Origin: Aliivibrio fischeri ES114
Lineage (GTDB): Bacteria; Pseudomonadota; Gammaproteobacteria; Enterobacterales; Vibrionaceae
Strand: one strand, 5' to 3'
Assembly: GCF_000011805.1 (NCBI RefSeq)
Contig: NC_006841.2
DNA: 24,000 bases
Numbering within the stretch: position 1 is the stretch's first letter; the number at the start of each line of letters is the position of its first letter. Shown here in pieces: positions 1 to 9,810 of this stretch. The position numbers were made by a program, and so were the translations under genes. The notes under the pieces were generated by a model. The model worked only from the letters and a program-made list of their open reading frames with translations, did not search any database and was not told the DNA's origin.

Positions 1-351
1 ATGACCAAAATTAATGATCTTGGGGGAGGTGTTTCTACTCAACAATTAAAGAAGTTAGTAGAAACATTGAACGAAAGTGTGCAGGAAAGAAAGAGAATTA
101 ACAAATTGTGCAATGAATACACTGACACCTATAATGACAGTTTCAATATTCAACAGAGCCTATTTGATTTCATTAAGCAAAATTTAAACTCTGATTTTGA
201 AGTAAATAATGATATCGGATCATGTATTTATGAGATAAGGAACAAGTCTTTTCACGAATTTAGAACGTTACGTAATGCCACAAAATTATCATCAATAACA
301 CCGCATGTTTTCGATTATATTCTGCACTTAATTACTAGCTACAAACATTAA
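1..351 (+). CDS. Hypothetical protein with HEPN-like R-N-x3-H motif; reverse-oriented within its cassette; true 5' end may lie outside the window
   Basis: 116-codon ORF starting at base 1. It contains IYEIRNKSFHEF, which fits the Rx4-6H HEPN signature with the typical polar residue (N) after R. A stem-loop follows at 357-388. No other family assignment is possible by eye. Confidence 0.45.
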   Translation: MTKINDLGGGVSTQQLKKLVETLNESVQERKRINKLCNEYTDTYNDSFNIQQSLFDFIKQNLNSDFEVNNDIGSCIYEIRNKSFHEFRTLRNATKLSSITPHVFDYILHLITSYKH

Positions 352-356
352 AAACT

Positions 357-388
357 AAATGCCACATTATCGAAAATATGTGGCATTT
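357..388 (+). terminator. Stem-loop immediately 3' of the 1-351 ORF, abutting an attC
   Basis: AAATGCCACAT (357-367) pairs perfectly with ATGTGGCATTT (378-388) around a 10-nt loop. The U-tract is only the TTT at the stem end, so terminator activity is uncertain. Confidence 0.35.
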
Positions 389-509
389 AACGCCTGCATA
401 ACACGTTTATTACTATGACGACTTAGCAGAATTTTACTGCCTTAAACATCAAACTCAAAGACAAACCTACAATGCCGAATGTAATAAATCGTGTTGATTG
501 CTTTGTTAA
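387..509 (-). repeat. Integron attC site (cassette 13)
   Basis: The plus strand reads TTAACGCCTGCATAACACGTTTATTAC...GTAATAAATCGTGTTGATTGCTTTGTTAA. It is 123 bp, belongs to the same family as the other 12 repeats, and its ends form an imperfect inverted repeat. Confidence 0.88.
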
Positions 510-516
510 ATGCGAT

Positions 517-969
517 TTAAAGTAATCTACAAACTAACCGCAACATATCTTTATGCTGAATACCATTTTCATAGATGTCTTCATCATAATTATCGAGAAA
601 GAAATCTTTTACGATTGAGTCAACTCGAAACCCATGCCGTTGATAAAACGACAATTGATAGCCAAAAGTTCCCGTTCCTAGCTCTACGTTACTGTAGCCA
701 TTCAAAGCTAATTCGTTTAATACAAATTTGAGGAGATTTGAGCCAATACCTTTTTGCTGATATTCCGGAGCTATCGCAATATTGTAGATTTCGGCCACAG
801 AAGAACTAAGCTGCTTACTAATACAAATACCGACTATTTCATGATTTTTAAAAGCACCGAAACAGTCAGAACCATTCAGATACTTATTAATGCATTCTTG
901 AGATGGATCTGCTTCAAGTAATAATTTCATTGGGGCTAAATCTGATGATATTTTTTTAAACTCAATCAA
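517..969 (-). CDS. GNAT family N-acetyltransferase (B. subtilis YvbK-like)
   Basis: 150 aa. It has the acetyl-CoA motif QQKGIGSNLL and the blocks LLLEADPS, GTGTFGYQLSFYQRHGFR and DFFLDNYDEDIYENGIQHKDMLRL, typical of YvbK-type GNATs as I recall them. TTG start with AGAGGA 7 nt upstream. Confidence 0.85.
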   Translation of the reverse strand: MIEFKKISSDLAPMKLLLEADPSQECINKYLNGSDCFGAFKNHEIVGICISKQLSSSVAEIYNIAIAPEYQQKGIGSNLLKFVLNELALNGYSNVELGTGTFGYQLSFYQRHGFRVDSIVKDFFLDNYDEDIYENGIQHKDMLRLVCRLL

Positions 970-999
970 ACCATTTTCCTCTCAAAGTCTTTGAAGCAT

Positions 1000-1122
1000 T
1001 TAACGCCTGCATAACACGTTTGCTACTATGCAGACCTAGCTGAATTTTACTGCCTTAATCACTGAAACTAAAGGCAAACCGACAACGCCGAATGTAGCAA
1101 ATCGTGTTTATGCATTTGTTAT
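1000..1122 (-). repeat. Integron attC site (cassette 12)
   Basis: TTAACGCCTGCATAACACGTTTGCTAC...GTAGCAAATCGTGTTTATGCATTTGTTAT, 123 bp. The TAA stop of the 1119 ORF lies inside its terminal core. Confidence 0.9.
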
Positions 1123-1610
1123 GTGCATTTCTCAAGTGAAGTCAGTTGTAAATAAGAACATTCTAATTTTTCAACAAAGGATTCGCTTATATCAGGAAAT
1201 CCTTTAGTAAACTTCTCAACATATGACACTTTAAAAAGATCATATAAAAAGCTACTTTCTATTTTCGCAACATGAATTGGGGAATAAGGTCTAAAAGAAA
1301 TAATAAAATCATCAAGCTCATCGTCATCAATTAAGTTATATTGATCTCCAGTAATATCAATTACCATCCCCTCAATTTCTATCCAATAATGCGTTATAGA
1401 ACAATTATCAGGACGAGCTCCTCCGACACCTATAATTTCAATATCAGGATAAAGTTTAAGAAAATGATACACAAGAATCATTGATGTCAATTTGCAGCTC
1501 ATTACTGGAAAATCGTCTATTACCAACTCTGTTGCTTCAGGATCACATGATTGAATCAGTTTTCTAAACCTAATAGCTTCATTCAGTATTACATTCCGCT
1601 CTATACTCAC
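1119..1610 (-). CDS. Hypothetical cassette protein (163 aa from GTG; ordered Cys...His...Asp residues)
   Basis: The ORF track gives 1119-1628 with an ATG formed by the attC junction (GTTATG). A strong AAGGAGG lies 4 nt before an in-frame GTG at 1610, so 1610 is the preferred start. No family recognised. FPVMSCKLTS ... SITHYWIEIEG ... IDITGDQ resembles a papain/transglutaminase-like Cys-His-Asp order (inference only). Confidence 0.6.
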   Translation of the reverse strand: MSIERNVILNEAIRFRKLIQSCDPEATELVIDDFPVMSCKLTSMILVYHFLKLYPDIEIIGVGGARPDNCSITHYWIEIEGMVIDITGDQYNLIDDDELDDFIISFRPYSPIHVAKIESSFLYDLFKVSYVEKFTKGFPDISESFVEKLECSYLQLTSLEKCT

Positions 1611-1626
1611 ATTGCCTCCTTTGCAC

Positions 1627-1749
1627 ATAACGCCTGCATAACACGTTTGCTACGATACAGACTTACCTGAATTTTACTGCCTTAATCACTGAAACTAAAG
1701 GCAAACTGACAACGCCGAGTGTAGCAAATCGTGTTGATGCATTTGTTAT
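1627..1749 (-). repeat. Integron attC site (cassette 11)
   Basis: ATAACGCCTGCATAACACGTTTGCTAC...GTAGCAAATCGTGTTGATGCATTTGTTAT, 123 bp. The stop of the 1746 ORF lies inside its terminal core. Confidence 0.9.
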
Positions 1750-2633
1750 ATTGCTGGTCTATGGTCTTCTTTGTTAGGAGGGATCATTGCTGATGTCCAT
1801 TTTAATATTACTGATAATCCATTCCAATTTCGCAGTCTTTCTTGATAAAGAAGTTCAGTAACATAATTACTTAATTTTTCGTCATCAAGCTCAGGGTTAA
1901 GATTATTTTCTTTAATAACATGAAATAATGCTGTCGCTCTTTTTTTACGAAACTTAACATCAGATTTATGAGAAAAAAGAGAAACCGCAGGCATAATAAA
2001 CATACCTGTAACCACAACTACAATAAGAACAAAACTAAGCATAAACAACACTAACCAAGAAGTAGTTTTAATTGAATCTCGACTACTTGAAGGACTATTA
2101 TCTATGTCATATTCTCTAGTATCAATACCAATTGCAGACACTTTTACTTTGGGTTCTTCTGTTCCTTCAAAAAGAAGCCGCAATTGTAATCCCGGTTCAG
2201 GTCCATCAACTCGATTAATTGCTTGAGCAATAAAATTGAAATAGTATTTGTTACCATCAAATACCATTTTCTTTGTTTGTATAACAGAGTCTGTCGTTTC
2301 GTGCTCACCTACTACCGCATGTGCTAATACCTTAAATTCTTTTACATTTTCTGGCTCTATAATTATAGTCACTGGCAGGTCAAGTAAATCTTTAGTCGAA
2401 AAGTTAACCAACGATACATACATGATGCCAATCTTTTCTTTTTCTGCATTATTAACGATTAGTCTTATTTCATCATCAGGAAACTTAGGCTTTGAGAAAT
2501 AATTACTTTCAAATTTCTTATGGATATCTAATTTTGGAACTTTAACTTGCTCCAAATATAGTAAATAACCAATCACCGCAGTAAAAATTGCAGTTAAAGT
2601 ACAAGAGAAAACGACTCTCCATATTCCATTCAT
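1746..2633 (-). CDS. Hypothetical two-pass membrane protein (295 aa)
   Basis: It fills its cassette. N-terminal TM (VVFSCTLTAIFTAVIGYLLYL), a ~160-aa beta-rich middle domain, a second TM (WLVLFMLSFVLIVVVVTGMFIMPAV) and a ~80-aa helical C-terminal tail. AAGGAG lies 10 nt upstream of the ATG. No recognisable family. Confidence 0.7.
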   Translation of the reverse strand: MNGIWRVVFSCTLTAIFTAVIGYLLYLEQVKVPKLDIHKKFESNYFSKPKFPDDEIRLIVNNAEKEKIGIMYVSLVNFSTKDLLDLPVTIIIEPENVKEFKVLAHAVVGEHETTDSVIQTKKMVFDGNKYYFNFIAQAINRVDGPEPGLQLRLLFEGTEEPKVKVSAIGIDTREYDIDNSPSSSRDSIKTTSWLVLFMLSFVLIVVVVTGMFIMPAVSLFSHKSDVKFRKKRATALFHVIKENNLNPELDDEKLSNYVTELLYQERLRNWNGLSVILKWTSAMIPPNKEDHRPAI

Positions 2634-2668
2634 CGATTTTAAACTCCTTCTATAATCTCAAGAGCAAT

Positions 2669-2771
2669 ATAACGCCACAATAACACGTGCGAAAGACTGA
2701 CTTACAAAACCAATTATACTCCAAACCGCGAATGCCGAATGTAAATAGCATCGTGTTGATTGCTTTGTTAT
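2669..2771 (-). repeat. Integron attC site, short 103-bp subtype (cassette 10)
   Basis: ATAACGCCACAATAACACGTGCGAAAG...GTAAATAGCATCGTGTTGATTGCTTTGTTAT. It has the same terminal cores as the other attC sites but a shorter, different centre. Its closest relative is the attC at 5608-5710. Confidence 0.85.
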
Positions 2772-3230
2772 ACGAGCCTTGCTTTCGCTCCAATTAACTT
2801 GGTAAAGAACTGATTTACCAAGATTTGCTGTAAACTGAGTTTAATTAGACTGGCTCAATTAAGCGAGCAAAATATCCAACCAACAACAATAATTGTGAAA
2901 CGAAACAATCCCTTTTTCTTACACTATTTGTACGATTTGGTTTCATCAACTTCTGAGCTAATAAACCAAATATCCTAACCACAATTGGGATTGAAAATGC
3001 TGCGAGGAAAACACTGATGCAGGCTAAAATGAGGCAAAACCATGAACAATTGAAGCGTAAATTAGTTTCTGAAACGCCTGAATTTGGGGCAATAATAGTT
3101 CAATGCCGAACCTGATGAAACGAACACTAAAAGGCAACAAAGAAAAAGGAAAACCACCTTACTTTCACACCTAAAAAACTAATGGTTCAATCGCTGAACT
3201 GAACCAAAAAACTGCATTCTCAGAGTTCGT
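2772..3230 (-). other. ORF-less integron cassette, paralog A (candidate structured non-coding element)
   Basis: 459 bp between two attC sites with no track ORF. It is alignable along its length to 5711-6168, with substitutions and indels. Conserved hairpins at 2798-2822, 2935-2971 and 3184-3205. Confidence 0.6.
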
Positions 3231-3351
3231 ATAACGCCTGCATAACACGTTTGCTACCGTGCAGATTAAGATCAAATTTACCACTTAAAACAGTAAACTC
3301 AAAGAAACCTAGAATGCCGAGTGTAGCAAATCGTGTTGATGCATTTGTTAT
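3231..3351 (-). repeat. Integron attC site (cassette 9)
   Basis: ATAACGCCTGCATAACACGTTTGCTAC...GTAGCAAATCGTGTTGATGCATTTGTTAT, 121 bp. Confidence 0.9.
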
Positions 3352-3359
3352 GCCTTAAC

Positions 3360-3884
3360 TCAGTAAAGTTTCAATTCTCTTAACAACTTAACTGCTGCAT
3401 CTTTCGGCTGTATATCACTCGTATCTACTGACGCATCGTATTTTATGAAATTATGAACCAATGGATACTCCGATTCAGCTAATCCGATTGCACGATCACC
3501 ACGCGCTAATTCTCGTGCAATACAGACATCTAATCTACACATTACCTTGACTCGAACTACGTTAAATCCACTCAAAGACTTTTCTAGTGCATTAATTTCG
3601 TCTTCATTTATCCAAGCATTATCAATAATAAGTCTACAACCAGCTTCTAATAGTCCTTTAACACAATTATGGTAACCTTCGGTTAATTGCCCATAATCAT
3701 ACCCAGAACGACTTATTGGATCCCCTGCTATCATTCTCCTGAGGTCTGTTGGAGGTAAAGCATATAAAACACTATCAATACTAAAATTTAGATATTGTAT
3801 TGATAATAATTCTTGTAACTCTTTAGCTAAGCTAGTTTTTCCAGAACTTCCTGTTCCATTAAGCAAGATTATATCTGGGTACAT
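3360..3884 (-). CDS. Chloramphenicol phosphotransferase-like (CPT family) P-loop kinase
   Basis: 174 aa. It has the N-terminal Walker A ILLNGTGSSGKTS, plus FSIDS, LIIDNAW and ARELARGDRAIGLAE blocks that mirror the Streptomyces CPT layout as I recall it. AAGGA RBS 8 nt upstream. Confidence 0.82.
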   Translation of the reverse strand: MYPDIILLNGTGSSGKTSLAKELQELLSIQYLNFSIDSVLYALPPTDLRRMIAGDPISRSGYDYGQLTEGYHNCVKGLLEAGCRLIIDNAWINEDEINALEKSLSGFNVVRVKVMCRLDVCIARELARGDRAIGLAESEYPLVHNFIKYDASVDTSDIQPKDAAVKLLRELKLY

Positions 3885-3910
3885 TGTAAGATTCCTTTCT
3901 CAAAAGAGGC

Positions 3911-4033
3911 ATAACGCCGCAATAACACGTTTATTACTACGACAACTTAGCTAAATTTTACTGCCTTAAACACTGAAACCAAAGAGAAACCTACAACGCC
4001 GAATGTAATAAATCGTGTTGATTACTTTGTTAT
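3911..4033 (-). repeat. Integron attC site (cassette 8)
   Basis: ATAACGCCGCAATAACACGTTTATTAC...GTAATAAATCGTGTTGATTACTTTGTTAT, 123 bp. Confidence 0.9.
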
Positions 4034-4138
4034 GCGGCACAAATAAAATTAATTGTGTGGAACCAAGATACTACCCGCAGTTACATTAACCAAAAACGGT
4101 TACGATACTTAAAATTTGCACAAAACTAAGAGAACAGA
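4034..4138 (+). promoter_or_regulatory. Conserved upstream region (putative own promoter/5' UTR) of the reverse-oriented membrane-protein gene
   Basis: This 105 bp differs at only 5 positions from its paralog at 6292-6396. It contains TTAACC-N18-TAAAAT and TTACAT-N18-ATACTT sigma70-like combinations. A gene antisense to the cassette direction cannot use Pc. Confidence 0.35.
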
Positions 4139-4441
4139 ATGGATGCTATTGCTCATTTAATTATCATTTTAGGGAATCCATTTGTATATAAAATTGGACA
4201 TCTAATTATTTCAATTTTAAGCATTGGTAAATTGTCCATTCAACCATTACCAACTAAATTTTCCGCTAATTTTGTGCAAGCGTTTGACGAAGATAAAATC
4301 GTAGAAAGTCAAAATAAACAAAACTACTCAATCTCATATGTAATTGCCCTTACCATTGGTTACGCTGTAACTATAGCTATCTTTGGAACCCTATTATTTT
4401 ATAATATCGATAGTTTTATTGAAGCTCAATCATCGAACTAA
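4139..4441 (+). CDS. Small two-TM membrane protein (100 aa), reverse-oriented in cassette, copy 1
   Basis: Two hydrophobic segments (AHLIIILGNPFVYKIGHLIISILSI and YVIALTIGYAVTIAIFGTLLFY). Compared with the paralog at 6397-6699 there is no indel, 9 silent codon changes and 11 replacements (hand count), consistent with purifying selection. Confidence 0.72.
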   Translation: MDAIAHLIIILGNPFVYKIGHLIISILSIGKLSIQPLPTKFSANFVQAFDEDKIVESQNKQNYSISYVIALTIGYAVTIAIFGTLLFYNIDSFIEAQSSN

Positions 4442-4449
4442 AAACCCGC

Positions 4450-4572
4450 ATAACGCCGCAATAACACGTTTATTACTACGACGACTTAGCTGAATTTTAC
4501 CGCCTTAAACACCTAAACCAAAGACAAACCTACAACGCCGAATGTAATAAATCGTGTTGATTGCTTTGTTAT
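4450..4572 (-). repeat. Integron attC site (cassette 7)
   Basis: ATAACGCCGCAATAACACGTTTATTAC...GTAATAAATCGTGTTGATTGCTTTGTTAT. Positions 4451-4572 are base-for-base identical to 6170-6291. Confidence 0.9.
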
Positions 4573-4632
4573 ATTGCCTATTGATAAACGACATGAAATC
4601 GTTCCAATACAAGAACCATGTCCTCACTAGGC

Positions 4633-5043
4633 TTAATAATTTAACTCTGAACATTCAGCAGCAAAGAAACGCCAATGAGCTTCACGCCACCATTTTAATG
4701 AACAGTCGCCCTCGCCTTCTACATGAGCAAACTCAGCCGTAACTTCGTTATATTTACACGTTTCAACTGAATCAATTTCAATGATACAAATTGGTTTCCC
4801 ATTCCAATCAACGACTACTTGTAAATGACCAACGGTTGGCATTGGTTCTTCACCAGATTCATACCAAACATTTAAGCTACAAGTTGCTGTCTTTTGACCA
4901 ATTCGGATTAATTCTGCGCATAAATTGGCATTATGCTCATCAGCACAGAAATAGTCTGAACTGAATGATTGATACTTTTCACGTTTAATTTCAGAAAGTG
5001 AGCTTAGATACTGATCCAAGTAGATTTGAGACTGTTCTTCCAT
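4633..5043 (-). CDS. ASCH domain protein (YhfF-like, PUA-like fold)
   Basis: 136 aa. Pattern FCADEHNANLCAELIRIGQKTATCSL ... VTAEFAHVEGEGDCSLKWWREAHWRFF is typical of ASCH/YhfF proteins. AGAGGA RBS 4-5 nt upstream. Confidence 0.82.
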   Translation of the reverse strand: MEEQSQIYLDQYLSSLSEIKREKYQSFSSDYFCADEHNANLCAELIRIGQKTATCSLNVWYESGEEPMPTVGHLQVVVDWNGKPICIIEIDSVETCKYNEVTAEFAHVEGEGDCSLKWWREAHWRFFAAECSELNY

Positions 5044-5069
5044 GAAATCCTCTTAACTATTTTCGCAAT

Positions 5070-5190
5070 ATAACACCTGCATAACACGTTTGCTACCATG
5101 CAGATTAAGCTTAAATTTACCACTTAACGCGGCAAACCCAAAGAAATCTAGAATGCCGAATGTAGCAAATCGTGTTGATGCATTTGTTAT
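5070..5190 (-). repeat. Integron attC site (cassette 6)
   Basis: ATAACACCTGCATAACACGTTTGCTAC...GTAGCAAATCGTGTTGATGCATTTGTTAT, 121 bp. Confidence 0.9.
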
Positions 5191-5280
5191 ACGTGTCTAC
5201 TTTAGTTTGAATAAGCATATATACAAAACTTAATATAAATTACATCTTATCACAGCTAAAACAACACAAGAGATATGAAT

Positions 5281-5312
5281 AAAAAAAGGGCTCGATGACT
5301 GGAATCGAACCC
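5281..5312 (-). terminator. Rho-independent terminator (module 1)
   Basis: The minus strand reads GGGTTCGA-ttccagtca-TCGAGCCC followed by TTTTTTT. The 8-bp stem includes a U-G wobble that would be a C-A mismatch if transcribed from the plus strand. Confidence 0.78.
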
Positions 5313-5436
5313 TGAACGTGAAATGCCTGTCTACAGCAGCACAAAAATTATGAGGAGCTCCAGTTTATTACTGGAATCACTCTTAACCAACTGTAAAATA
5401 AGACAGGTTTGTTTTTAACGCTACCCCCCTCGGCAC
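5281..5436 (-). ncRNA. Candidate small RNA module 1 (5' end undefined)
   Basis: No credible ORF. It shares conserved blocks with module 2 (ATTTTACAGTT, GTAATAAA, GTGYTGCTGTAGACARGCATTTCAYGT) and ends in its own terminator. Confidence 0.4.
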
Positions 5437-5471
5437 AAAAAAAAGGGACTCATTGGCTAAAATTGAGTCCC
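5437..5471 (-). terminator. Rho-independent terminator (module 2)
   Basis: The minus strand reads GGGACTCA-attttagccaa-TGAGTCCC followed by TTTTTTTT. The 8-bp stem is perfect. Confidence 0.82.
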
Positions 5472-5607
5472 AGACATGAAATGCTTGTCTACAGCAACAC
5501 ATAAGTAAGGAGTGACTACGATTTTATTACATTGACACTGCCTTACTAACTGTAAAATCAGGTAGGTTACTATTAAATATTTATAATTTGGACGTCATTG
5601 ATTTCGT
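5437..5607 (-). ncRNA. Candidate small RNA module 2 (5' end undefined)
   Basis: Tandem paralog of module 1 with the same conserved blocks but a completely different terminator stem sequence. No credible ORF. Confidence 0.4.
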
Positions 5608-5710
5608 ATAACGCCGCAATAACACGTGCGAACGACTTACTTTCCAAACCAATTATACTTCAAACCACAAACGCCGAGTGTAATTAGCATCGTGTTGATT
5701 GCTTTGTTAC
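5608..5710 (-). repeat. Integron attC site, short 103-bp subtype (cassette 5)
   Basis: ATAACGCCGCAATAACACGTGCGAACG...GTAATTAGCATCGTGTTGATTGCTTTGTTAC. Paralog of the attC at 2669-2771. Confidence 0.85.
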
Positions 5711-6168
5711 ACGATCTTTGTCAACGCTTCGCTTTAATTGGTAAAGAACTGATTTACCAATAATATTTAGAAACCAATTCTAAATTACAAAAGCTAATTT
5801 AGCGAACAAAAGAACCGTTCAACTACAAAAACTGCGAAACGAAACAATCCTTTTTCTAGCACCATTTGTACGATTTAGTATCAGCAAGTTTGGAGCTGAT
5901 AAATCAAATATCTTTGCCACAATTGGGATTGATAATGTTGTGAGGAAAACACTGATGCAGGATAAAATGAGGCATAACCAAAGAACAATTGAAGCGTAAA
6001 AATATCTCTGAAACGCCTGAACTTAGATCGACAATAGTCAATTGCCGAACCAAATGAAATGAAAGCTAAAAGGAAACAAAGAAGAAGGAAAACTACCCTA
6101 CTTTAACATCTAAAAATCGAATGGTTCTATCGCTGAACTGAGCCAAAAAACTGCAATCTTTAGTTCGT
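5711..6168 (-). other. ORF-less integron cassette, paralog B (candidate structured non-coding element)
   Basis: 458 bp with no track ORF, alignable to 2772-3230. Hairpins at 5737-5761, 5879-5901 (extendable to 5873-5909) and 6123-6144. Confidence 0.6.
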
Positions 6169-6396: not shown

Positions 6397-6699
6397 ATGG
6401 ATGCTATTGCTCATTTAATTATCATTTTAGGGAATCCATTTGCATATAAAATTGGACACCTAATTATTTCAATTTTAAGTCTTGGTAAATTGTCCATTCA
6501 ACCATTACCAACTAAATTTTCTGCTAATTTCGTGCAAGCCTTTGACGAAGATAAGGTCGTAGAAAACCAAAATAAACAAAACTACTCAATATCATATGGA
6601 GTTACCCTTTCCATTGGTTACGCTGTAACTATAGCTATCCTTGGAACCCTATTATTTTATAATATTGATAGTTTTATTGAAGCTCAAACATCAGAATAA
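6397..6699 (+). CDS. Small two-TM membrane protein (100 aa), reverse-oriented in cassette, copy 2
   Basis: Paralog of 4139-4441. Same length and same TM layout. Confidence 0.72.
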   Translation: MDAIAHLIIILGNPFAYKIGHLIISILSLGKLSIQPLPTKFSANFVQAFDEDKVVENQNKQNYSISYGVTLSIGYAVTIAILGTLLFYNIDSFIEAQTSE

Positions 6700-8826: not shown

Positions 8827-9810
8827 ATGGATATCCCATTAGATCTTAAACCAGATTCACAACGCTTCACCGATCAACTTCGAATTTTCATTCGAACACG
8901 TGCGCTAGCCTATAATACAGAGAAACAATACATATATTGGATAAGTTGCTTTATTCGTCATAACAACTACACATCAAAAGACGAAATTAACGCCTTTGAT
9001 ATACCAGCCTACCTTGAGCACTTAGTCGTAAAACAGAACGTATCGCCAAATACCCAAAAAACCGCGTTAAACGCACTCATATTTTTATGTCGCGAATACC
9101 TACAACAATCAGTCGATAACCTTGAATTTAAACGTTCTAAAAAAGCCACTAAATTGCCAACTGTATTTACTCATGGTGAAGCCATCTCCGTTATAAATGA
9201 ACTTAACCACCCCACTAAGCTGATTGCACAACTTATGTATGGGAGCGGTTTACGAATAAACGAAGCATTAAGGCTAAGAGTAGATGACATCGATCTTATC
9301 CATAAAACCATCACCATAAGAAATGGGAAAGGTAATAAAGACAGGACTACTGTACTACCCGAGAGCATCATTCCAGAGCTTAAAACGCAACTCGAGTTTG
9401 TAAAACAACAACATAAAATGGATGCAATAAACGGGGATGATGAAGTTTATCTACCTAATGCCATTGCAAAAAAATACCCTCACAGAGCAAAAAGTTATGG
9501 TTGGCAATATGTGTTTCCTTCAAAACAGATCAGCAAAGATCCACGTTCAGGTCAGCATCGTCGACACCACATGTTAGATAGAAGCGTTCAAAAACAAGTA
9601 ACCAATGCAATAAAAAAACTTGAGATAGATAAGAAAGCCAGCAGCCACACATTTAGGCATAGCTTTGCGACACGAATTTTAGAACGGGGTGGAGATCTAA
9701 GGACAATACAAGAATTATTGGGTCATTCTGATATCAAAACGACCCAAATTTATACTCACGTAATAGGCTTACACTTCTCAGGAACGAAAAGCCCATTAGA
9801 CTTTGATTAA
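8827..9810 (+). CDS. intI: Integron integrase (tyrosine recombinase IntI)
   Basis: 327 aa. Catalytic blocks [25 protein letters not shown] and [15 protein letters not shown] (R-H-R-Y). It also has the IntI-specific additional segment [39 protein letters not shown]. The gene is divergent from the attC array. Confidence 0.95.

Follow-up and report, generated by a model that had tools for sequence, protein, structure and literature searches.

How can an integron gene cassette that carries no evident gene act on its neighbours? The question is raised by the sixth cassette, F1, of the chromosomal integron of Aliivibrio (Vibrio) fischeri ES114, analysed here within a stretch of 24,000 nucleotides (nt) of contig NC_006841.2 (RefSeq assembly GCF_000011805.1), hereafter called the window. 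The expression of large chromosomal integrons, with their hundreds of cassettes, is only partly understood, and gene-less cassettes have recently been shown to supply promoters. In an earlier note on this DNA it was proposed that the cassette is either a pair of small-RNA (sRNA) genes or an insulator that silences every distal cassette. According to the evidence presented below, F1 is probably a bidirectional transcription-control cassette composed of two diverged sense/antisense RNA modules of ~158 bp and a tail with an outward promoter.

The whole cassette occupies positions 5074..5611 of the minus strand, beginning at the TT of the upstream core (GTTATAC) and ending at the G of its own core (GTTATAT), as judged from the attC alignment and repeat families, which also delimit the attC site of the cassette at 5074..5190 (-). 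It is thus an integron gene cassette by its G/TT recombination cores, its own 3′ attC, and its location in an array beside an integrase gene. Its body extends to ~5191, so that the sixth array position and the body at 5191-5607 proposed earlier are essentially right by the order of attC-bounded cassettes. It had also been supposed that no family of this kind is described; however, the same DNA has already been cloned, assayed, and mapped by rapid amplification of cDNA ends (RACE) as cassette F1, VF_A0658-VF_A0659 of V. fischeri ES114 (Blanco et al., Nucleic Acids Res 2024 52:2961; PMC11014356), and both open reading frame (ORF)-less promoter cassettes and an integron sRNA are known. The supplement entry of that paper matches the window over its full length with only five single-base indels, all in homopolymer runs of the machine-read PDF, and the published position numbers fit the window sequence without a shift (position 1 is 5611; all 10 listed ends on both strands). 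The new contribution is the anatomy, namely the tandem units, the terminators, the nested antisense promoters, the covarying hairpins, and a second copy of the cassette, F1′; the cassette itself is already published.

The body of F1 is built of two tandem units with a period of ~158 bp and an overall identity of 69%. In unit A, a predicted sense RNA of ~141 nt (5437..5577, minus strand; minimum free energy (MFE) -37.7 kcal/mol, z -4.8) includes block 1 (AUUUUACAGUU, 5558-5548), the hairpin P2 (5547-5504) with GUAAUAAA at its apex, and block 3 (5500-5474), which holds a small hairpin UGCU-GUAGACA-AGCA. It ends in intrinsic terminator A, GGGACUCA-N11-UGAGUCCC-U8 (5471-5437), with an 8-bp stem and an 11-nt loop (dG -12.7 kcal/mol, z -4.0). 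The corresponding RNA of unit B is ~135-141 nt long (5281..5421, minus strand; MFE -42.3 kcal/mol, z -4.7), and the unit alignment places its block 1 at 5399-5389, P2 at 5388-5346, and block 3 at 5342-5316. Terminator B (5313-5281) has the form (A)GGGUUCGA(U)-N7-(A)UCGAGCCC(U)-U7, that is, AGGGUUCGAU-N7-AUCGAGCCCU followed by U7, with a 10-bp stem and a 7-nt loop (dG -14.3 kcal/mol, z -5.8). Both A and B are G+C-rich stem-loops immediately followed by a U-run and are predicted from sequence to be intrinsic terminators; a terminator scan of the array listed few comparable sites elsewhere, most terminator-like hits being attC hairpins. The 20-mer TGCTGTAGACARGCATTTCA of block 3 occurs twice in the window against an expectation of 0.00. 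Beyond terminator B lies the 3′ tail (5191..5280, minus strand) with an outward sense promoter that has an extended -10 element TGaTAAGAT (5252-5244), recognized from the sequence together with Table S3 of PMC11014356.

Much of this layout had been drawn in the earlier note and has been borne out. The two diverged tandem units are evident from their period and identity, the three conserved blocks show complete (100%) or nearly complete identity between the units, and both minus-strand terminators are confirmed in place. The statement that the terminator stems differ in sequence and keep the same structure also stands, since three pairs are fully compensatory and one has changed from C-G to U.G; this U.G pair in the stem of terminator B is real, being C-G in the paralogous unit D described below.

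Relatives were sought with an nhmmer profile built from the two units, in loci reached by walking along the array via neighbouring cassette proteins, and a 169-amino acid (aa) cassette protein led to the paralogous cassette F1′. It lies ~12 kb further from intI in the same array (locus L016, 12281-12846) on contig LCYF01000007.1 of assembly GCA_001029395.1, to which the window is 100% identical over 13.6 kb. Positions 14-5800 of the window differ from this contig by one 9-nt indel and are otherwise identical. Unit C of F1′ (L016 12313-12454, E-value 1e-39) is 98% identical to unit A, with 2/141 nt differing, and unit D (L016 12495-12637, E-value 1e-37) is 94% identical to unit B, with 9/141 nt differing. 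The tail, the least conserved part of the body, shows 8/90 differences including an altered -10 element, the attC sites differ by ~20%, and the inter-unit spacer has been replaced; the units are therefore the best-conserved part of F1 and F1′. The C-D spacer (L016 12458-12490) bears an insert of ~33 nt with an inverted repeat of its own (TGAAATATCAAG / CTTGATTTCA) in place of CCGAGGGGGG of F1. F1′ precedes a different gene, an APH. It was probably missed by the published survey because an upstream in-frame ATG gives a 79-aa ORF, above the 70-aa cut-off.

Outside these two cassettes the units seem to be absent. A covariance model of the four units detected only those four in ~180 kb, comprising the window and the arrays of six other assemblies reached via a chloramphenicol-phosphotransferase-like (CPT) cassette protein; the covariance search of related integron arrays that had been suggested as a check thus yielded no further units in ~90 kb from 6 assemblies of other strains. 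An exact search with the block-3 pattern (19-mer), which would miss homologues with even one mismatch, gave nine chance hits with unrelated flanks in 185,579 GTDB species genomes, JGI metagenomes, and IMG/VR, and BLAST against plasmids gave no match. In Rfam, the window has no match at the gathering score and only noise at E-values up to 10. The unit family appears private to one array, as far as could be seen from these sequence searches. A tRNA- or tmRNA-like reading of the T-loop-like GGTTCGATTCC in terminator B was considered and rejected, ARAGORN being negative and the Rfam tmRNA fragment hit reaching 7 bits only.

The four units (A-D) fold alike on the minus strand into P1, P2, P3, and a terminator, with z-scores of -3.5 to -5.8 for whole units. 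P1 is a short ACA/UGU helix, P2 is an imperfect hairpin of 16-19 bp whose stem sequence differs between the unit types while the apical GUAAUAAA is conserved, and P3 is a small hairpin UGCU-GUAGACA-RGCA. P2 alone gives z-scores of -6.4 (unit A), -3.6, and -4.6. A 23-pair consensus on the four-unit alignment has 97.8% of its cells paired and includes 7 pairs changed on both sides, and such pairs are absent from all six slid controls. The substitutions separating the recent paralogues leave the structure intact: a bulged C to U, G-C to G.U, A-U to G-C, and, in the terminator, U.G to C-G. The minus strand is favoured both by the G.U pairs and by the folding energy, -33.2/-34.6 kcal/mol versus -30.0/-28.7 kcal/mol for the complement.

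Two peculiarities of these hairpins were observed in addition. The AGACA of the P3 loop has a perfectly complementary partner in every unit, the side of the partner differing: in units A and C it is UGUCU just downstream (in unit A, 5490-5486 with 5476-5472), and in units B and D it is CCUGUCU far upstream, which forms 7 bp with AGACAGG (in unit B, 5332-5326 with 5407-5401). Either a pseudoknot whose partner has been swapped or a coincidence could account for this. The P2 apex of unit A (AATGTAATAAAATCGT, 5533-5517) shows a match, in reverse complement, to the 5′ arm of one attC subfamily (AATGTAAT-AAATCGTG), for example at 3997-4013 (+), and AGTAATAAAC is common to units B and D and the attC 3′ arm. 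The similarity of the apex is weak (unit A, z 2.5; the observed score was reached by 5/200 shuffles) and is lacking in units B and D. The match could reflect an origin from attC, pairing with attC-containing transcripts, or chance; because only unit A is similar, and weakly so, a derivation of the units from attC is not claimed. A k-mer complementarity scan returned only this attC-arm match and self matches.

The activity of F1 is known from published experiments, in which the cassette with its own attC was inserted between mCherry and gfp, arranged as divergent reporters, and its activity was measured in V. cholerae (PMC11014356). Sense GFP was significant for all three V. fischeri cassettes (27- to 101-fold), F1 being called ‘robust’; its antisense mCherry signal, 14-fold, was at the top of the 30 cassettes tested; and promoter activity was also supported by reverse-transcription quantitative PCR. 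When placed downstream of dfrB9, F1 cut trimethoprim resistance to the level of a silent gene, so that the upstream gene is silenced (PMC11014356). The same study reported RACE ends at cassette positions 35, 191, 194, 197, 317, 364, and 375 in the sense direction and at 122, 240, and 283 in the antisense direction (Table S3, PMC11014356).

Transferred to the window, several of the sense ends fall at the unit starts. Position 35 is 5577, the start of unit A, and positions 191/194/197 are 5421/5418/5415, the start of unit B; both lie at homologous positions, where the TTAAnAnnAACCT stretch begins, ~25 nt before block 1. Position 317 is 5295, inside terminator B, and positions 364 and 375 are 5248 and 5237, in the tail past terminator B, the latter being 7 nt past the extended -10 element TGaTAAGAT. 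A candidate sense promoter of unit A can be read at 5583..5611 (minus strand), with the -35 element TTATAC (5611-5606), a 17-nt spacer, and the -10 element AATTAT (5588-5583). The ends of unit B may be processing sites because no recognizable -10 element precedes 5421-5415, or they could be the result of mispriming of the anchor primer on a G6 run, as the kit uses dC-tailing, although the ends lie 3-9 nt past the run. Since the reverse-transcription primer lies in attC (~5129-5150), each reported sense end represents read-through of one or both terminators; the sense RACE data prove some read-through and say nothing on how abundant the terminated RNAs are. Reading TTTACA...GTAATAAA as a promoter was rejected on account of its 20-21-nt spacing, the lack of any RACE end downstream, and the position of GUAAUAAA in the apex of a covarying hairpin.

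On the opposite strand, positions 122 and 283 are 5490 and 5329, in block 3 of units A and B, respectively, and position 240 is 5372, in the P2 loop of unit B. Each of the two block-3 ends follows a TGAAAT, at a distance of 8 nt for 5490 and 5 nt for 5329; this hexamer is complementary to the conserved GCAUUUCA in block 3. In unit A, a putative antisense promoter (5453..5490, plus strand; start at 5490) consists of the -35 element TTGGCT (5453-5458), an 18-nt spacer, and the -10 element TGAAAT (5477-5482); in unit B (5295..5329, plus strand; start at 5329), of the -35 element ATGACT (5295-5300), an 18-nt spacer, and TGAAAT (5319-5324). Both proposed -35 hexamers sit in the terminator loops. 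Within the window, TGRCT-N18-TGAAAT is present at these two homologous sites only, against an expectation of 0.01 occurrences. Such a nested arrangement would explain why the terminator loops share AG(C/U)CA despite their differing stems, the antisense -35 element lying in the loop, and in part why block 3, with the antisense -10 element inside it, is so highly conserved. The published ‘-10/-35 boxes’ of F1 are different from the TGAAAT/TGRCT elements proposed here, being fixed-offset windows: the ‘-10 box’ is simply whichever hexamer spans -15 to -10 on the sense strand or -16 to -11 on the antisense strand (PMC11014356, Table S3).

Taken together, these features suggest how the cassette may work. 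Each module would specify a structured sense RNA of ~140 nt, with P1, P2 with its apical GUAAUAAA, P3, and a strong intrinsic terminator, and would at the same time specify a convergent antisense promoter, whose -35 element lies in the terminator loop and whose -10 element, together with the bases transcribed first, makes up the most conserved block. Sense transcripts, whether they enter the units or start in them, would mostly stop at the two terminators, releasing discrete RNAs of ~140 nt, and downstream expression would be re-initiated mainly at the tail promoter of F1. Antisense transcripts start in both units and exit via the 5′ boundary of the cassette (PMC11014356), and the sense RNAs may interact in cis with their fully complementary antisense partners. 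In the published assays, antisense transcription silences the upstream gene, and sense transcription reaches the downstream reporter (PMC11014356). If this reading holds, the promoters of F1, the strongest antisense ‘silencer’ of the published set, are parts of a duplicated, structure-conserved RNA module rather than scattered AT-rich accidents. The anatomy makes the reporter result testable and hints that integrons may mobilise RNA-only regulatory devices; its significance is tempered by the earlier publication of the cassette, the confinement of the family to one array, and the fact that the RNAs have so far not been observed.

Several points weigh against this interpretation. The terminated RNAs of ~140 nt have never been observed, all published sense ends being derived from read-through transcripts. 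The reporter and RACE experiments were performed in V. cholerae with a multicopy plasmid, not in V. fischeri, and the RACE kit, based on dC-tailing, does not discriminate primary from processed ends (PMC11014356). The unit B ends are preceded by GAGGGGGG, in which no sigma-70-like -10 element is found, and F1′ does not keep the tail promoter. The deep comparison involves just two types of unit, both of one genome, and the pairing was tested on the very sequences that had served to derive the structure, which makes the covariation a support and not a proof. Finally, all four substitutions between units A and B in block 3 fall on one codon phase, that of third positions (a chance of 1/27 by our own reckoning), as would fit a coding sequence.

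The best-surviving alternative is that F1 carries two trans-acting, paralogous sRNA genes of the Hfq type as its selected cargo, with the promoter and silencing effects on neighbours as side effects; it is possible but doubtful. The anatomy that the earlier note ascribed to a pair of small-RNA genes has held up, given the shared fold, the compensatory changes, and the homologous 5′ ends, while the function, and with it any trans-acting role of the F1 RNAs, is hypothetical. Each unit does have a defined 5′ end and a terminator with a U7-8 tail after the U-rich AUUUCAYGU, the single-stranded loops (GUAGACA, UAAUAAA) and the structure are conserved, two copies of the cassette are retained in one array, and there are precedents both in tandem paralogous sRNAs and in the integron-borne sRNA-Xcc1. 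Such genes would, however, be expected to show conservation of seed and structure in other genomes, and this was not found in genome, metagenome, viral, and array searches: neither the exact block-3 search nor the covariance model gave a homologue outside the one array, there is no Rfam match, and the k-mer complementarity scan gave no target. Besides, two sRNA genes would leave unexplained why the antisense -35 and -10 elements are conserved in the terminator loop and block 3.

A more ambitious and rather unlikely extension is that F1 and F1′ are an unrecognised sense/antisense RNA switch, in which the terminated sense RNAs of ~140 nt would be stable and their mutual titration with the nested antisense RNAs would decide between silencing of the upstream array and the feeding of reverse-oriented neighbours, or else that the RNAs act in trans on attC-containing transcripts via the GUAAUAAA loop with its match to an attC arm. 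If true, this would amount to a mobile RNA-only regulatory device for integron arrays.

It is improbable that the units encode cysteine-rich small proteins (MCCCRQAFHV...), possibly as tandem type I toxins whose antitoxins would be the antisense RNAs over codons 4-6. It had been stated that the body contains no ORF longer than 22 codons, which is wrong: minus-strand ORFs of 39 codons (MCCCRQAFHVWDSILANESLFFVPRGVALKTNLSYFTVG, 5383..5502, ATG start) and 34 codons (MCCCRQAFHVQGSIPVIEPFFYSYLLCCFSCDKM, 5240..5344, TTG start) exist, both beginning with MCCCRQAFHV. Together with a 47-aa ORF on the plus strand that reaches into attC, they are the longest of the F1 body, where there is no ORF of at least 70 aa; cassettes with ORFs below 70 aa are those counted as gene-less in the literature, and F1 is one of them. 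In favour of coding, paralogous ORFs are present in all four units, and all four A-B substitutions in codons 2-10 are third-position transitions; the B-to-D changes, four before the last two codons, are likewise synonymous. The antisense starts at 5490 and 5329 fall within codons 4-6, and the transcripts extend upstream across the start region, as would be expected of a type I toxin-antitoxin (TA) locus. Tandem repetition is common among type I loci, and TA cassettes abound in integron arrays.

The ORFs themselves do not resemble genes. No Shine-Dalgarno sequence precedes any of them, units B and D start with TTG, and the length varies across the units (39 aa in unit A, cut to 23 aa in its F1′ paralogue, 34 aa in unit B, and 34 within 79 aa). 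The 39-codon ORF runs through terminator A and the 34-codon ORF through terminator B, and because each MCCC ORF runs through its own terminator, the terminated transcripts would lack a stop codon. Past residue 10 the two unit types are unrelated except where the hairpin imposes the sequence. Of the four block-3 changes, two are in addition wobble-neutral in P3 and the flanking GUG/CAY helix, and the same substitutions are neutral in P3 as U-A to U.G and G.U to G-C. The peptides have no clean transmembrane helix, so that of a translatable toxin the ribosome-binding site, the stop codon before the terminator, and the hydrophobic helix are all lacking. The exact 39-aa product is not on record, and for the 46-aa stop-to-stop translation no protein sharing three 5-residue words was found among 5.8 billion clusters. 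The MCCC ORFs look spurious and are probably not genes, and their translation is unlikely.

Still less probable is functionless AT-rich filler, that is, a decayed or fused cassette remnant with spurious promoters. Spurious transcription in AT-rich cassettes has been discussed by Blanco et al. (PMC11014356), the family is confined to one array, and the P2 apex of unit A is weakly like an inverted attC arm. Filler would hardly have kept three blocks, a pair of hairpins in which 7 base pairs have changed in a compensatory way, and the spacing of the antisense promoter between unit types at 69% identity, nor would its units be better conserved between F1 and F1′ than the tail and attC. The one-way insulator of the earlier note, in which the two terminators stop Pc-driven transcription and leave the cassettes past position 6 silent, is highly improbable: it accords with two strong sense-oriented intrinsic terminators and the scarcity of comparable sites elsewhere in the array, but it is already largely refuted by the robust sense read-out into gfp from cloned F1 (PMC11014356), by sense 5′ ends downstream of terminator B, by attC-primed cDNAs that reach 5577 and thus read through both terminators at least sometimes, and by the silencing demonstrated, which acts on the upstream gene. 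Least credible of all are tandem riboswitches or attenuators gating transcription into the downstream ASCH cassette, since a similar tandem layout, with a conserved ‘aptamer-like’ 5′ part and a terminator conserved in structure only, stands against the lack of any meaningful Rfam match even at an E-value of 10, the lack of a conserved antiterminator on inspection by hand (4 bp in unit A versus 6 bp with two wobbles in unit B), a regulated gene that would belong to a different, independently mobile cassette and is replaced by an APH after F1′, and a promoter between terminator B and the next cassette.

F1, read as a pair of sense/antisense modules, appears to work most like nested sense/antisense RNA loci. 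An antisense promoter nested within a structured sense unit also occurs in the Ibs/Sib and Ldr/Rdl type I repeats and in antisense-controlled plasmid and insertion-sequence systems. By analogy, loci like Ibs/Sib and Ldr/Rdl seem to share with it tandem diverged units, a nested antisense promoter, and an antisense 5′ end that is the most conserved part; they differ in that F1 has no credible toxin ORF, given the missing Shine-Dalgarno sequence, the terminator inside the ORF, and the non-conserved length. The sRNA pairs OmrA/OmrB and PrrF1/PrrF2 are also head-to-tail diverged copies with their own terminators, conserved blocks, and variable spacers, but they are core-genome, widely conserved, and Hfq-dependent, with known regulators, whereas the F1 pair resides in a mobile cassette of one array. 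F1 lacks the defining features of type I TA loci, riboswitches, Rfam families, and conserved Hfq-type sRNAs.

Among integron elements, the closest is the published F1 itself, the same DNA, gene-less (<70 aa), active on both strands, and silencing the upstream cassette; it is treated there as a promoter carrier, and neither the tandem duplication, the terminators, the hairpins or other RNA structure nor the second array copy is mentioned (PMC11014356). The ORF-less cassettes of oral Treponema (Tansirichaiya et al. 2019; PMC6557892) are likewise protein-less and attC-bounded and supply promoters to their neighbours in sense and antisense, but they are unrelated to F1 in sequence and are not known to contain terminator-bounded RNA units. 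A 2022 review of cassette expression (PMC8876359) mentions both ORF-less promoter cassettes and sRNA-Xcc1. sRNA-Xcc1 of Xanthomonas campestris (Chen et al. 2011, as cited in PMC8876359) is, like the RNAs of F1, a small RNA in an integron cassette; as far as it is presented in that review, it is trans-acting, consists of a single unit, and has a demonstrated regulon link, whereas the F1 RNAs are predicted and, having no Rfam hit, unrelated to it in sequence. A terminator-bounded structured RNA pair with antisense promoters nested in the terminator loop and the conserved block is not described in the F1 paper or the PMC8876359 review, and a literature search on integron sRNAs of V. fischeri ES114 yielded no paper.

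The window covers part of the chromosomal integron, with intI at 8827-9810 (+), whose product matches the Phage_integrase and SAM-like domains. The cassette array runs leftwards from intI on the minus strand, with attC sites of ~110-135 nt between the cassettes; 13 of them are alignable, with invariant ends (attC family alignment). Counted from attI, the cassettes encode a GNAT acetyltransferase (cassette 1), a 123-aa protein (2), a YycE/glyoxalase-like protein (3), and a reverse-oriented 100-aa ORF (4), followed by a gene-less cassette (5; 6152-5612, minus strand), F1 (6; 5611-5074, minus strand), and the ASCH-domain cassette (7; 4633-5043).

Cassette 5, directly upstream of F1, has no ORF of at least 50 aa. 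It is an 81-86% paralogue of the cassette at 2667-3226 (minus strand), which is the published cassette F2. F2 bears a terminator-like hairpin near its start, TGGTTCAGTTCAGCGATTGAACCA followed by TTAGTTTTTT (3206-3183), and no site like it was listed by the terminator scan in 5612-6152. Reverse-oriented cassette genes also occur: the window has two copies of the 100-aa ORF, 95% identical, at 4139-4441 (+) and 6397-6699 (+), and a reverse-oriented 122-aa gene (L016 11737-12105, minus strand) adjoins F1′ on its upstream side. As antisense transcripts of the F1 type are co-directional with such genes, the ‘antisense’ promoters could feed these neighbours, which is only an idea. A 150-aa GNAT product of the window (517-969, TTG start) is absent from the called-gene records, and contig LCYF01000007.1 has a 150-aa call there. 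The CPT cassette protein (174 aa; window 3360-3884) is identical in otherwise different arrays of six other assemblies (L018-L024), which illustrates cassette shuffling.

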